From Bacteroidia bacterium (GTDB taxonomy: Bacteria; Bacteroidota; Bacteroidia; AKYH767-A; JBBKVM01), in assembly GCA_037969175.1 (NCBI GenBank), contig JBBKWX010000039.1, forward strand, positions 3,752 to 67,751: 64,000 nucleotides of DNA. The letters run 5' to 3'. The first letter of the stretch is position 1. The number at the start of each line of letters is the position of its first letter. A program made the translations under genes and the position numbers. The notes under the pieces were generated by a model. The model was not told where the DNA came from, did not search any database, and worked only from the letters and a program-made list of their open reading frames with translations. Positions 34,994 to 41,200 of this stretch are shown here, piece by piece.

Positions 34994-36144
34994 TATTTCT
35001 TTCTTGTTTTAATAAGATCAACATATAGTTCCTTGAATGCATTCACCATGCCCTCCCATGAAAATCTTTTCTTTTCTTCTTTCACTCCCAAAGTTAACTC
35101 TGCTTGCTTTTCATTATTGTAAAAATCAACAATCGCATTTTCAATCGAAAAACCATCAGGTTCGCAAACATATCCCGCTATACCATGAGGAACTATCTCC
35201 GGCAATCCCCCAACATTGGTAACGATCATCGGTTTTTCAAAGTGATAGGCGATTTGAGTTACTCCACTTTGGGTTGCACTAAGGTATGGTTGAGTAACAA
35301 TATCAGCTGCACCAAACAAATACTTCACTTTGTCATCAGGAATAAATTCATCCATGATGATAATGTTGTCAGAGAGACCATTATTTTGGATAAAATCAGT
35401 ATAACTCTGTTTATCCTCATAAAATTCTCCGGCAACTATAAGCTTGGTGCCAAGAGCTTTAATTTTTTCAGAATTCATTGCTTCTAATAAGATCTGAAGC
35501 CCTTTGTATTTCCTGATAAAACCAAAGAATAACAAGTAATTGTAAGTTGGATCAAGACCTAAAACTTTGCAAGATTCAATTTTCTCAACTTTTTCACCAT
35601 AATGAGAATAAATTGGATGCGGATTATTTCGGATCAATTTAATGTCATCAAATTTCTTAAGATCTGCACCAACAGCATCTGACATTACCATAAAGCCATC
35701 GCATGCTTTCACAAATAGTGATGTGAAAAATTTGTCACCTATTCTTTTTTCATGTGGGATAATATTATCTGCAAAGCCAACAACTCTTCCGGGTATCGAT
35801 TTTCTGGATAATGCTGAAACCAATGCCAGTGTAGGTGCCATAAATGGAATCCAATATCTGAGTATTAGCATATCCGGCTGCTCCTTCTTTATAAATTGAG
35901 CTGTTTTATACCATGACCAGGGATTCACAGAGCTTAATAAGGAATGAATCTTTAGGTTTTCAGGCGCAGATCTGGTTAGATCTATCTGTGATTTACCAGG
36001 AAATAAGATCGAAGGATACTGAAGATAATAAGATATGATCTGCACATGATGTCCATCTGTGATAAATGATTTTGCCAACTCTTCATCAAAGCTTGCTATG
36101 CCTCCCCTCAATGGCCAAGCGGGTCCTACAATAATAATTTTCAA
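34993..36144 (-). CDS. Glycosyltransferase family 4 (GT-B, group 1).
   Basis: N-terminus (TTG)KIIIVGPAWPLRGGIASFDEE. C-terminal GT1 motifs (...EGFGLP-like ...GGLPEIV). The TTG start overlaps the upstream TGA (TTGA). Confidence 0.7.
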   Translation of the reverse strand: MKIIIVGPAWPLRGGIASFDEELAKSFITDGHHVQIISYYLQYPSILFPGKSQIDLTRSAPENLKIHSLLSSVNPWSWYKTAQFIKKEQPDMLILRYWIPFMAPTLALVSALSRKSIPGRVVGFADNIIPHEKRIGDKFFTSLFVKACDGFMVMSDAVGADLKKFDDIKLIRNNPHPIYSHYGEKVEKIESCKVLGLDPTYNYLLFFGFIRKYKGLQILLEAMNSEKIKALGTKLIVAGEFYEDKQSYTDFIQNNGLSDNIIIMDEFIPDDKVKYLFGAADIVTQPYLSATQSGVTQIAYHFEKPMIVTNVGGLPEIVPHGIAGYVCEPDGFSIENAIVDFYNNEKQAELTLGVKEEKKRFSWEGMVNAFKELYVDLIKTRKK

Positions 36145-37115
36145 CTGACCTCAATTTGATTTTCAGTTCCGACGACTTTATCCACCAAATAATCATTTCT
36201 GTCAGCAGCTGAGCGTGAGACCAATTCACCTATAAAACCGGTTAGAAACATTTGAGTACCAATGATCATCGCCAGTAATCCAAAATAAAACAAAGGCCGG
36301 GATGTCATATTATAAGCATCAAAAAAGTATTTCGTTAATGCCAGGTAGACCGCGATACATAATCCTCCAAAAAAAGATAAAGAACCTAATAATCCAAAAA
36401 AGTGCATAGGCCGCTTACCAAATCTAGCCATGAATGTGATGGATAACAGATCCAGGAACCCATTGACAAATCTTTCAAGGCCAAACTTAGTGACTCCATA
36501 TTTTCTGGCTCTGTGTTCTACCGGTTTCTCGGTGATCTTTGAAAACCCGGCCCATTTTGCAAGCAATGGAATATATCTGTGCATTTCACCATATACTTCT
36601 ATGCTCTTCACAACATCTCTATGATATGCTTTTAGTCCACAATTAAAATCATGTAAATTATAGATTCCGGAAACTTTGCTGGTGGTCCAGTTAAAAAATT
36701 TACTTGGAATTGTTTTGGATATTGGATCATACCTCTTTTGTTTCCATCCTGAAACCAGGTCATAGCCTTCTTTCCTTATCATATCGACCATGGCCGGAAT
36801 CTCATCAGGACTGTCCTGCAGATCTGCATCCATTGTCATGACAACCTGACCTTTTGCTTCCCGAAAACCAATATTCAGTGCAGCAGATTTTCCATAATTT
36901 CTACGGAACCGAAAACCTTTTACATTGTTGTACTCCTTGCTTAGTTCTTCAACAACATTCCAGGAATTGTCTTTACTCCCATCATCAACAAAAATTATTT
37001 CTGTCGAAAGATTATTTTCTTTTACTACCCGCTGGATCCATGTACAAAGTTCTGGTAAAGATTCCTCTTCATTGTATAATGGAATGACGATCGAAAGTTC
37101 CGGATTATGCTTCAT
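36141..37115 (-). CDS. Glycosyltransferase family 2 with C-terminal TM helices (polyprenyl-phosphate glycosyltransferase, GtrB/ArnC/DPM1-like).
   Basis: LSIVIPLYNEEESL...IIFVDDGSKDNS...DADLQD DxD-type motifs. Two C-terminal TM segments. ATG at 37113-37115 (MKHNPELS...) is preferred over the TTG-extended 37181 start. Confidence 0.8.
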   Translation of the reverse strand: MKHNPELSIVIPLYNEEESLPELCTWIQRVVKENNLSTEIIFVDDGSKDNSWNVVEELSKEYNNVKGFRFRRNYGKSAALNIGFREAKGQVVMTMDADLQDSPDEIPAMVDMIRKEGYDLVSGWKQKRYDPISKTIPSKFFNWTTSKVSGIYNLHDFNCGLKAYHRDVVKSIEVYGEMHRYIPLLAKWAGFSKITEKPVEHRARKYGVTKFGLERFVNGFLDLLSITFMARFGKRPMHFFGLLGSLSFFGGLCIAVYLALTKYFFDAYNMTSRPLFYFGLLAMIIGTQMFLTGFIGELVSRSAADRNDYLVDKVVGTENQIEVS

Positions 37116-37644
37116 CTGCAGAAAATGGGCTGGCTTTTTTCTTAATAAATAAAGCAATGACTGATGCGAAGATACCACCAAGTATAAAACTCTGCAGGTA
37201 TTGTATCATCAATCCTTTTATAGTGTATTGATCTTCAAAATTTTCGAATCTTGCTAATGCCTTCTCTATTTCATTTTCAGGAGTATTAAAACGCTCCATC
37301 ATCGACAATATCTTGTCTTCCATCAATATTTTCAGATTGGCTGCAAGCGAAGGGTCCACAAAATTGTAAAATATGATATTGAATATCAACATCACAAAAC
37401 CGGAAACTATAAAGGCAGTAAACATTACCAAAAATGCCTCTTTGAATGAAATGTATCCATCCTGCAGTTTACGAAAACTGATTCCTGTATAAATTAAGAA
37501 TCCCAGTAACATTGCAACCAGAAATGCCATGATCCAATAATTCACCATGTATTCAATATTGATAAAATAAAGGGTTATAAATACGATGATATTAATCAAG
37601 CCAAATTTAAGGCCCAGATCTAATGCATATTTCTTTAAATCCAT
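37105..37644 (-). CDS. DUF4199 family membrane protein.
   Basis: 179 aa, 4 predicted TM helices. Typical Bacteroidota partner gene immediately upstream of a GT2 polyprenyl-phosphate glycosyltransferase. Confidence 0.6.
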   Translation of the reverse strand: MDLKKYALDLGLKFGLINIIVFITLYFINIEYMVNYWIMAFLVAMLLGFLIYTGISFRKLQDGYISFKEAFLVMFTAFIVSGFVMLIFNIIFYNFVDPSLAANLKILMEDKILSMMERFNTPENEIEKALARFENFEDQYTIKGLMIQYLQSFILGGIFASVIALFIKKKASPFSADEA

Positions 37645-37715
37645 AATTATTAAATTGATTACAAATGTAAAAATACGATTCGGCTTATTACTTTATTTTT
37701 GTTCAATAATTTTTC

Positions 37716-37723
37716 TACCTTTG
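37716..37723 (+). promoter_or_regulatory. -7 promoter box TACCTTTG for the SRP RNA gene.
   Basis: TAnnTTTG consensus ending 5 nt before the first G of the predicted RNA. An upstream TATTTTTG/TTTG sits at 37694-37701. Confidence 0.4.
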
Positions 37724-37727
37724 TCCC

Positions 37728-37823
37728 GGGTAAGTCTTATACGACCAGCTCCTATTGAAATTCCCCAGGATCGGAAGGTAGCAAGGATAAATGGTTGAGC
37801 GGTGCGATGTAAGTAGCTTACCC
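37728..37823 (+). ncRNA. ffs: Signal recognition particle RNA (small bacterial type, 4.5S).
   Basis: 96-nt sequence GGGUAAG...CUUACCC with a 7-bp terminal helix. Domain IV motifs CCCCAGGAUC-GGAA-GGUAGCAAGG: GGAA tetraloop closed by C-G, with flanking AGG/AGCA loop. Compare E. coli CCAGGUCCGGAAGGAAGCAGCCAAGG. The 3' GAUGUAAGUAGCU resembles the E. coli GAUGUAGCU. It is followed by T7 (37824-37830). It lies in a 190-nt gap between minus-strand operons. Confidence 0.8.
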
Positions 37824-37835
37824 TTTTTTTGTGCC

Positions 37836-38240
37836 TTATTTTTTGAAATGATTTTCATTAATTTCTACCATCTTGCTAATTGACAGTGGCTTGGTAATAT
37901 AATCTGTTACTTCTGTATATGCTTTGGCTCTGTCCAGATCTTTCTGATAAATGGAAGATGAAAGCATAATAATTTTAATTCCTTCCTTTTTATCCAGTTT
38001 TATTTTTTTGAACTCATCGAGGAAATCCCATCCATTCATCACAGGCATATTGATATCCAAAAACAAAAGATCAGGCAGATCAGCTGCGTTTGCATCCTGA
38101 ATGCTTTGTAAGGCTGCAATACCGGTTAGATGTGTTTCTATATCGCATGCAAGACCGGATTTAGAAATGATCTTAGTACACAAAAAATTGTTGACGTCAT
38201 CATCATCAATGATCATGATCCGTTTCAATTGTTTTGACAT
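37836..38240 (-). CDS. Stand-alone response-regulator receiver domain protein (CheY-like).
   Basis: 134 aa. IMIIDDDDVNNF...DLLFLDINMPVMNGWDFL...KIIMLSSS... The receiver domain has the acidic pocket, the phospho-Asp and the conserved Lys region. Confidence 0.85.
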   Translation of the reverse strand: MSKQLKRIMIIDDDDVNNFLCTKIISKSGLACDIETHLTGIAALQSIQDANAADLPDLLFLDINMPVMNGWDFLDEFKKIKLDKKEGIKIIMLSSSIYQKDLDRAKAYTEVTDYITKPLSISKMVEINENHFKK

Positions 38241-38249
38241 AAAGTACGA

Positions 38250-41200
38250 TTATACAGTGTAATCCTTCAAAGATATGTGAAAAGTCGTACCAATCCCAAC
38301 TTCACTTTCAACTTCTATTTTCCCGCCATGAGCTTCAACTTGAGATTTTATTATAAAGAGTCCCAGTCCTTTACCCTCAATTCTTTCATGAAAACGTTGG
38401 TAAAAACCGAATAATTTCTCTTTATATTTCGCAAGATCAATTCCAAGGCCGTTATCTTTAACACTTATAATCACCATTCCGCTTTCTTTTGTAGTCTTGA
38501 TTTCGATCAAAGGATCACGTTCAGGTGCCCTATATTTAATAGCATTTGTGATCAGGTTCAATAAGATACTTTGTATATGGCTTTGCGGATAAACCATTGT
38601 AGGGGTCATTGCAAAATCAACATTAAAGACAACATTAGATTTAAGTACTTGAGTCTCTATGCTATGAATCACAGAATCCAGAACTTGCTGAAATGAAACT
38701 TGAATGATATCATCATTTAGTGTTTTCTTTTCAACAAGCATTTTGATCAGATCATTAAGGGTAATATGCAGGTAATTCAAGGATTGATTCATCCTTTTCA
38801 TTACTTGAGGATTTTCAATATTCAAAGGATCAACGGAATCATATAACCCCATCAATCCAATTAAATTTGCAACCGGAGAACGTAAATTATGAGATGCAAC
38901 ATATGCAAATTGTTCCAGTTCATTATTTGATAAGATCAATTCATTGGTAAGCTGTTGTAAGGCTCTTTCTGCAGCCTTTCTTTCATCAATATCAAGGAGA
39001 GTACCCGACATTCTCTTAGCCTGATATCTATTGTCCCTGATAAATGCCCTGCCTTTTTTCAGTATCCACTTGTAGGTGCCACTCTTGGTTCTAAGCCTTT
39101 GTTCAGATTCGTAATGATCGGTCTTGCCTTCAAGATGCAATTTCAATTTTTCATTCACAAAATCAATGTCCTCAGGATGAATTAAATCTTCCCATGAATT
39201 TCTTGAACTAAATTCATTCAAATTATCTTCATAATCATATCCCAGCATTTCATACCAACGTTGATTATAAATTGCAACATCTTTTTCTATATCCCATTCC
39301 CACATCGCCAGATCTGCGCCTTTTATAGCAAGATCAAGTCTTTCCTCTGAGATCCTTAGCTCGTCCTCTGCATGCTTTATTGCCGTGATCTCTTGTTGAG
39401 AAACAACAGCATAACCCTGTCCAATTTCCATTCGGGAAACTCGTACAATAAACCATTGTACACGATGATCGGTATGCATTGGATATTCAATATGAAAGAT
39501 CCTTTTATCTGAATTAAAGAGTGTTTGAATGCCATTTTTTAAATTCTGAGAAAATTCACATCCTTTTTTATAATTAGAATCCAGTATTTGATAATAATTT
39601 GAATTTACTTCTCCTCCTATGATCCATGCATTATTCAATAAGCTCGCTTCTTTCCAGCCATCATTGACAGCCATGATATTACCTGTGTTTTCAACAACAG
39701 CAATTAAAGAAGTGAGAGAGTTCAATATTCCCTTGGTAAAACTCTCGTTATTCCGGAGAGCCTCCGTCATTTTGTTTTTATGAATAAAGGACCCAATTCC
39801 TACGGCGATCGTTCGCAGCATAGATAGCTCATCAGGATTCCAGGATCTAGCTGATTCACAAGAATCCATTCCTAAAAATCCCCAAAATAAATTGTCAATA
39901 AAAATTGGGACTACCGCAATCGAAAGTATATTTTGTGAGGCAAGAAATTTATGTTCAGGTTTCGGAAAATCATTAATGTTTCCATCTATTGAATTTCCTT
40001 TTTGAAATTCAGATAACCATCTACCCATACCTAATTCGGAATAAGAAGCATTCTTAGCTGAACCAAATTTAGAAGTCCCATATTTTTTGTTGCTAAACCA
40101 TTCATATAGCATAGTACAAGAAAGGTTTGCCGGATCTTCAAAACTATTTTTAAATATATAACAACGATCTAATTTATTTTTCTTCCCCAAAATCTCTACC
40201 GCTTGTAATAGGGCAGTTTCATCATCAGGATTCGTAAGCAATACATTTGAAGATTCAGCTGCCGATTGTATCAATTGTGTTCTTTGCTCATTTACTTTTT
40301 TCAGCTTCTTTTTCTCAGTTACATCTCTGATAATAGCTTGAAAATATAATTTCTCAGCAAAATTTATCTTACTCAACCTTACTTCTACATCCATTAATGT
40401 ACCGTCCATCTTGGAATGAATCCAATCAAAATTGATCTGATTTTCCTCTTGAATAAGTTCTCTAATAATTTTGACTTTTTGGTCTTTGTCAATACCATTC
40501 TGATCATTTGGTGAATAATCAATTGGAGATTTCCCCAGAAGATCCGTTTTCTTGCAAGCAAAAATCTCTGACGCCTTTGGATTACAATCCATAATTTCGA
40601 GATCTCGCATCAGAATTATGGCATCTTCTGATGCATTGAATAAGTTCTTGTACTTTGTTTCGCTCTCAGTCAGAGTATCCAGTGCTCTTTTCTTTTGAGT
40701 GATGTCATGTGAAATATCCATCAAAATCCGTGAACCATCTATGTCAACAAACATGGTTCTTGTTGAGGACCATCTGTAATCTCCATCCGTATTTAATATC
40801 CGGAAATCTATTTTATTTTCTGCACTCTGCCCTTGAAACAACGCATTATAACTCTTGGCAACTTCTTCTCTTTCATCCGGATGAACTCTTTCCAAGATAT
40901 CGTATACCGACATTCCTGCCATATCATCTCTGGAATAACCGATGATCTTAGCTGATGCATCATTGACCATTATGATCTTCTTGGTGGTGATATCCGTTAG
41001 CGTTATACCTACGTTTGCATTTTCAACTAAACTACGATACAACTTTTCGCTTTGGCGAAGTTTTTTACTTGTGAGCAATCGTTCTAATTCTGCAGAAGCC
41101 CGGGTGGAAAATATTTTAAGAATGCTTCGGCTAAACTCCATATCTTCAATCGGCTTTGAGTCGATAACAGCAAGACTACCAATAATATCCCCTTTAGATG

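Follow-up and report, generated by a model that had tools for sequence, protein, structure and literature searches.

A very probable small SRP RNA gene (ffs) between two minus-strand operons of a Bacteroidota bacterium

The intergenic locus and its neighbours

The DNA analysed is a stretch of 64 kb (hereafter the window), whose other content is ordinary chromosomal housekeeping DNA (pyrC, pntAB, mnmA and signal peptidase I). An intergenic gap of 191 nt extends from the start codon of a DUF4199 gene (37644) to the stop codon of a response-regulator gene (37836). GT2 and GT1 glycosyltransferases are encoded behind the DUF4199 gene, and a 1254-aa PAS/GAF hybrid kinase is encoded ahead of the response regulator. 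The gap carries the sequence considered here, attributed below to an SRP RNA gene (ffs), which lies on the plus strand and is flanked by two minus-strand operons (Table 1). A preliminary description of this DNA had placed in the gap a plus-strand RNA of 96 nt running from GGGUAAG to CUUACCC, and this sequence is present at the position given in the table. The gap had also been described as 190 nt long and free of ORFs; a gap between the operons does exist, but it measures 191 nt and is overlapped by two mechanically called ORFs, 37586-37798 (+, 70 aa) and 37715-37858 (-, 47 aa), neither of which is credible as a gene.

Table 1. Coordinates of the predicted RNA, its parts and the surrounding features (positions in the window)
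Feature	Position	Strand	Description
GT2 ORF	36141-37181	-	TTG start; 77-nt overlap with the DUF4199 ORF
DUF4199 gene	37105-37644	-	ATG at 37644
TACATTTG	37662-37669	-	Matches the Bacteroidetes -7 box; its G is 18 nt before the DUF4199 ATG
Second TAnnTTTG match, TATTTTTG	37694-37701	+	22 nt upstream of the ffs -7 box
Candidate -7 promoter box, TACCTTTG	37716-37723	+	Matches TAnnTTTG; followed by TCCC, the first G of the RNA being the fifth base
SRP RNA (ffs) body	37728-37823	+	96 nt; GGGTAAG at the start, CTTACCC at the end
Helix 5, 5' arm	37728-37756	+	Contains the CCAGCUCC block at 37745-37752
Asymmetric internal loop	GAAAU 37757-37761; UA 37788-37789	+	5' side unpaired in the MFE fold and in RNAalifold
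Short helix between the internal loops	UCC 37762-37764; GGA 37785-37787	+	Alignment columns 49-51 with 72-74
Symmetric loop, 5' side	CCAGG 37765-37769	+	Opposite AGCAA 37780-37784
Helix 8 apex	37770-37779	+	Stem AUC/GGU around the GGAA tetraloop 37773-37776
Symmetric loop, 3' side	AGCAA 37780-37784	+	
Helix 5, 3' arm	37790-37823	+	Contains the conserved GGUUGAGCGGUGCGAU block, free in the search pattern
U7 run	37824-37830	+	Directly after the hairpin; together they resemble an intrinsic terminator at the 3' end
Response-regulator gene	37836-38240	-	Stop codon 37836-37838; ATG at 38240
TATCTTTG	38268-38275	-	Inside the hybrid-kinase ORF, at its 3' end; the response-regulator ATG follows 28 nt downstream

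The Pfam match in the GT2 ORF begins only at residue 27-30, so the true start of this gene is probably farther downstream. Two minus-strand matches to the promoter box of the phylum were observed near the gap. The first, TACATTTG, faces away from the ffs box at a distance of 46 bp and is a promoter candidate for the DUF4199-GT2-GT1 operon; the second, TATCTTTG, may act as a promoter of the response regulator from within the operon. Neither ffh nor ftsY was seen among the 10 large window ORFs that were examined, and they are not expected in the window because SRP components need not be linked.

Covariance-model match and fold

The whole window was compared with all 4227 families of Rfam 15 using their gathering scores. 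The sole match was to RF04183 (Bacteroidales_small_SRP), the SRP RNA family of Bacteroidetes within the SRP clan CL00003, at 37721-37827 (+), with 95.4 bits and an E-value of 1.5e-18 (gathering score 55.2). The match spans the full model (positions 1-107 of 107) and is not truncated; a second family of the SRP clan also exceeded its own gathering score at this locus, and lost to RF04183 in clan competition. A permissive local Rfam scan of the window added only chance-level matches (E >2, far below gathering scores), and no tRNA or tmRNA was found in the window using ARAGORN. The search with an SRP covariance model that the preliminary description had advised was therefore positive, with RF04183 as the best model, and its statement that this is the only RNA gene supported in the window agrees with the Rfam and ARAGORN scans. 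The core motif CCCCAGGATCGGAAGGTAGCAAGG is present in the RNA, and CCAGGNNNGGAANNNAGCA occurs once in the 64 kb (37765-37783), against 0.08 occurrences expected by chance.

The 96-nt core folds as a single long interrupted hairpin with an MFE of -31.9 kcal/mol, representing 52% of the ensemble; its fold z-score is -3.18, 1 of 200 shuffles being as stable, and addition of the U-tail leaves the fold unchanged. The closing helix, previously given as 7 bp, is present and comprises 8 pairs, seven of them Watson-Crick and the eighth U8-G89. The MFE structure of 37700-37860, a segment that takes in 28 nt of promoter DNA, differs from this hairpin and is weak (z-score -0.94, ensemble frequency 0.004). 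This longer fold was discounted as evidence because the added bases lie upstream of the inferred start, although it does indicate that thermodynamics alone is context-dependent and not decisive.

As in small SRP RNAs, the apex is a GNAR tetraloop, here GGAA, closed by a 3-bp stem of which all three pairs covary. The architecture is a single hairpin made of helix 5 and helix 8, with covariation and without an Alu domain, and both internal loops of clan CL00003 are present, the symmetric one (CCAGG/AGCAA) and, below it, the asymmetric one (GAAAU/UA), which together we take to be the Ffh M-domain binding site of domain IV. The domain IV core that had been described, with its GGAA tetraloop and AGG/AGCA loops, was thus recovered as motif and as fold, helix 8 with the tetraloop appearing in the MFE structure of 37728-37823. 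The interrupted long helix expected below it was likewise recovered, in the MFE hairpin, in the covariation described below and in the inner helices returned by RNAalifold.

Relatives, covariation and transcript ends

Relatives were collected using a pattern that fixed only the loop motifs, which returned at least 120 genome loci. Nearly all the loci listed are titled Bacteroidota (Chitinophagales, Flavobacteriales, Cytophagales, Sphingobacteriales, Bacteroidales and Marinilabiliales), with a few other taxon labels. A narrower pattern added 77 metagenome contigs with the SRP motif, which is thus present in at least 197 Bacteroidota loci (genome and metagenome). The blocks CCAGCUCC, GAA, CCAGG and AGCAAGG were set by the search pattern, so that their invariance is not independent evidence, and the pairs inside the CCAGCUCC block could not vary in the sample. 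Among the matches listed, the nearest genome relatives are 88-92% identical over the whole RNA. The metagenome contigs contain no exact match to the 58-nt central part of the RNA; in the 77 contigs RNA identity is at most 86/96, the flanking GT2 DNA is 65-71% identical, and none is a close relative.

An alignment of 77 distinct copies (A1) was produced by MAFFT, structure not being used, and was scored against the MFE structure of the window RNA. Standard pairs are formed in 97.4% of the cells, versus 33-49% in slid controls where the 3' partners were moved by 1-3 columns. Changes on both sides are found in 22 of the 34 pairs (303 cells), and none of 500 column shuffles reached any of the observed covariation measures. 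Compensatory changes affect 18 of the 28 pairs of helix 5 and all three pairs of the apical stem of helix 8, the first of which occurs as GC (30), AU (27), UA (14) and CG (5). The U35-A60 pair of the window is the compensated form of a common C-G (CG:70, UA:7). RNAalifold, used on its own, recovered the inner 25 pairs, 14 of them with compensatory changes.

Invariant positions in A1 include the pattern-fixed CCAGG (C38, C39, A40, G41, G42) and AGCAA (A53, G54, C55, A56, A57). In the 3' arm of helix 5, G67, A71, G72, C73, G74, G75, G77 and G79 are also invariant, while T68, G70, T76, C78, A80 and T81 are at least 90% conserved; the GGUUG(U)AGCGGUGCGAU block of this arm is conserved although the search pattern had left it free.

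Rfam was also run on sampled DNA from 18 taxonomically spread relatives, each of which gave one SRP-clan match. RF04183 is the model matched in 17 of the 18, with 72.6-120.4 bits, the 95.4 bits of the window being mid-range. The remaining copy, from a Lewinellaceae (L067, 2697-2792, -), has a shorter, divergent helix 5 and matches RF00169 best (48.7 bits), not RF04183; the "Bacteroidales" model consequently covers most, and not all, of the phylum. In two relatives the SRP RNA is immediately followed, on its own strand, by a tRNA gene (Porphyromonas, L095, 1297-1369, -; Prevotella, L002, 2599-2672, -), which suggests that the two RNAs are co-transcribed there; the window has no such tRNA after its SRP RNA.

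Promoters of Bacteroidetes carry, for the primary sigma factor, the consensus TAnnTTTG at about -7 (PMC7366714). The box noticed earlier ahead of the first G fits this consensus and lies where it had been placed. Among the 110 loci with enough flank, 94 have a TAnnTTTG whose G is 20-24 nt upstream of the CCAGCTCC core (CCAGCUCC). The G of the window box, at -22 from this conserved core, occupies the modal position, and other offsets within 120 nt have about one match each. Between the box and the first paired G, the listed metagenome copies have 4 bases, rarely 5. As a motif by itself, TAnnTTTG shows no enrichment in the window (80 matches, 72 +/- 9 being expected), so that the evidential weight of the ffs box comes from its conserved position. 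In the second upstream match, the TTTG at 37698-37701 could be a weak "-33" element, imperfectly placed at about -30 to -27 from the inferred start. At the other end, the seven T's that had been reported after the 3' helix are in place; in about 100 of the 110 loci four or more consecutive T's begin 31-40 nt past AGCAAGG, the run of the window beginning at +37.

These positions suggest that ffs probably has a primary-sigma promoter of its own, TACCTTTG being the -7 box. Transcription would probably start at G37728 or within 2 nt of it and end in the U7 run, the SRP hairpin itself acting as the terminator stem. The transcript would accordingly extend from about 37728 to 37823-37830, as read from the sequence.

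Alternative readings, proposed function and known SRP RNAs

Taken together, these data make it almost certain that 37728-37823 (+) is the ffs gene for the small (4.5S-type) SRP RNA of a Bacteroidota bacterium, and none of the observations contradicts this reading. Synteny bears on the alternative of a second copy, redundant or in decay, of an SRP RNA gene whose functional version is elsewhere in the genome, to which we give very little probability. A GT2 homologue (at least 50% protein identity) was found in 37 loci; in 33 of them it has the upstream, divergent placement seen in the window, at a median distance of about 0.7 kb from the RNA. The DUF4199 gene, which is poorly conserved, was detectable in 7 loci, all 7 having the arrangement of the window. 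The GT2 neighbour of the window is 60-68% identical to those of Bacteroidia MAGs, and the response-regulator neighbour had no tblastn match at the other loci. The shared GT2/DUF4199 arrangement supports orthology with the ffs locus of those genomes, and retention of this neighbourhood speaks against a second copy. A second copy would be compatible with a search that covers only 64 kb of the genome and with two less common features of the RNA, the GAAAU insertion and the U-A in place of C-G. Against it, the conserved loop positions are all intact, the departures from the consensus are compensatory or common to the 77 metagenome contigs, the promoter box and the T-run stand at conserved positions, and the sampled DNA of each of the 18 relatives has a single SRP match.

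Another reading takes the element as a mere structural hairpin, a terminator or insulator between operons with a chance likeness to SRP RNA. It would account for a long hairpin with a U-run and only 5 nt between it and the last stop codon of a convergent operon, but terminators do not have loops conserved across a phylum, an SRP score of 95 bits or a conserved promoter box of their own. Moreover, no U-run follows the hairpin on the minus strand, and the terminator scan was empty on both strands. For ffs itself, this generic scan and that for sigma-70 promoters (none found at the locus) are uninformative, because the promoter type of Bacteroidota differs and the loop limit of 3-8 nt excludes a 96-nt hairpin. 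The probability left to this reading is negligible. Equally negligible is that of a small protein encoded by either of the two overlapping ORFs: both exist, and a stop-free minus-strand frame crosses the RNA in 67 of 67 complete homologues, but 3-nt periodicity is absent (column variability of 0.108, 0.157 and 0.125 by codon position), the homologues commonly differ by single-base indels that would shift any frame (alignment columns 47 and 86), the compensatory substitutions across the helix arms are an RNA signature, and the plus-strand ORF begins inside the opposite-strand DUF4199 gene as the minus-strand ORF does inside the response-regulator gene.

Bacterial SRP RNA, a universal housekeeping RNA with a part in the delivery of membrane proteins, is the scaffold for Ffh and its receptor FtsY in co-translational targeting. 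Both internal loops, symmetric and asymmetric, serve to bind the Ffh M domain, and a GNAR tetraloop speeds FtsY docking. Before GTP is hydrolysed and the cargo released, the Ffh-FtsY GTPase complex relocates to a distal site of helix 5, which activates the hydrolysis. From conserved motifs only, we infer that the ffs RNA would bind Ffh and serve co-translational targeting. Its apical domain IV, formed by the asymmetric loop, the CCAGG/AGCAA symmetric loop and the GGAA tetraloop, would by analogy bind the Ffh M domain to make the SRP, which would capture signal sequences on translating ribosomes, and the GGAA tetraloop would speed docking of FtsY. In lower helix 5, GGUGCGAU opposite CGACC, a region that has GAUGUA in common with E. 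coli, is a plausible counterpart of the distal site.

In addition to this SRP function, the ffs hairpin could act in cis, as a barrier separating the two minus-strand operons, which we consider unlikely. The stop codon of the response-regulator gene is 5 nt from the end of the ffs U-run, and the generic scan found no terminator-like site for the response-regulator/hybrid-kinase operon on the minus strand; transcripts reading through the end of this operon would therefore run antisense through ffs. They would be directed toward the DUF4199 promoter candidate and might be halted by the antisense hairpin, which is very stable, or by collisions where ffs is heavily transcribed. The response-regulator neighbour is, as noted above, not conserved, which argues against a selected arrangement of this kind.

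As an ffs gene the feature is ordinary and already known, its family being in Rfam 15 and its structure and function established. The significance of the locus is limited to annotation, namely a housekeeping SRP RNA gene that is invisible to the ORF track. It is also a clean local example of gene framing in Bacteroidota, with a TAnnTTTG about 4 nt before the RNA and a hairpin with a U-run at its end.

RF04183 is described as the SRP RNA of Bacteroidetes in the Rfam 15 paper (PMC11701678), which cites for it the B. thetaiotaomicron transcriptome map (PMC7366714). SRP RNA is not mentioned by name in the main text and accessible supplements of the latter, and the attribution of RF04183 rests on the Rfam 15 paper. 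The window RNA shares with this family its length class (about 96-100 nt), the framing by promoter and U-run, and the blocks CCAGCUCC, GAA, CCCCAGG, AGCAAGG and GGUUG(U)AGCGGUGCGAU. Relative to the consensus, its asymmetric loop carries one extra base (GAAAuU), and one base of GGUUG-AGCGG is missing. Its apex is the canonical GGAA, whereas that of true Bacteroidales (such as Prevotella, Porphyromonas and Bacteroides) is UUGACC or UUGAUC, and these score 110-120 bits on RF04183 against 95 for the window, so that the source probably belongs to another lineage of the phylum. Indirect signs of Bacteroidota as the phylum are the DUF4199 neighbour, the TAnnTTTG box, the titles of nearly all the RNA relatives and the identity of the GT2 neighbour to those of Bacteroidia MAGs; exact look-ups of the DUF4199 protein and of the response regulator gave no match.

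Nine copies (L021, L025, L037, L069, L070, L075, L091, L095 and L117) have an apex of the form G/U-C-UUGACC-G-C/A and not NNN-GGAA-NNN, with UUGAUC in L095. In the UUGACC-type copies of Bacteroidales the third stem position is U-C, giving 10 "not paired" cells at A1 columns 59/64, and related apex variants were observed in L033 (CCUGACGG) and L053 (UUUUGAUCGA). Replacement of the GNAR tetraloop in Bacteroidales appears to be a known property of RF04183, the consensus of which reads gcuuGAucGc.

With the 4.5S RNA (ffs) of E. coli and RF00169, the window RNA has in common the single-hairpin architecture of small SRP RNAs, identical CAGG, CGGAAGG (GGAA tetraloop) and AGCA elements in domain IV, the GAUGUA of the 3' arm, and, by analogy, the presumed function as Ffh/FtsY scaffold. 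The match to E. coli claimed in the preliminary description holds for these three domain IV elements, but the string that it quoted is slightly conflated, the annotated ffs reading TCAGGTCCGGAAGGAAGCAGCCAAGG. The window hairpin is the shorter one, with 96 nt against 114 nt for mature E. coli 4.5S RNA (the E. coli RefSeq feature is 97 nt). Its predicted loops are a symmetric 5x5 CCAGG/AGCAA and an asymmetric GAAAU/UA, where E. coli has a symmetric 4x4 CAGG/AGCA and an asymmetric ACCA/A. The promoters also differ, that of the window being of the Bacteroidetes TAnnTTTG type and that of E. coli of the sigma-70 type with -35 and -10 elements.

The large bacterial SRP RNA (Bacillus scRNA type, RF01854) shares its clan and its domain IV with the window RNA. 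Compared with it, the window RNA is without an Alu domain and its best Rfam model is of the small type; with the promoter box 4 nt upstream and the U-run directly downstream, the locus has room only for a hairpin of 96-103 nt.
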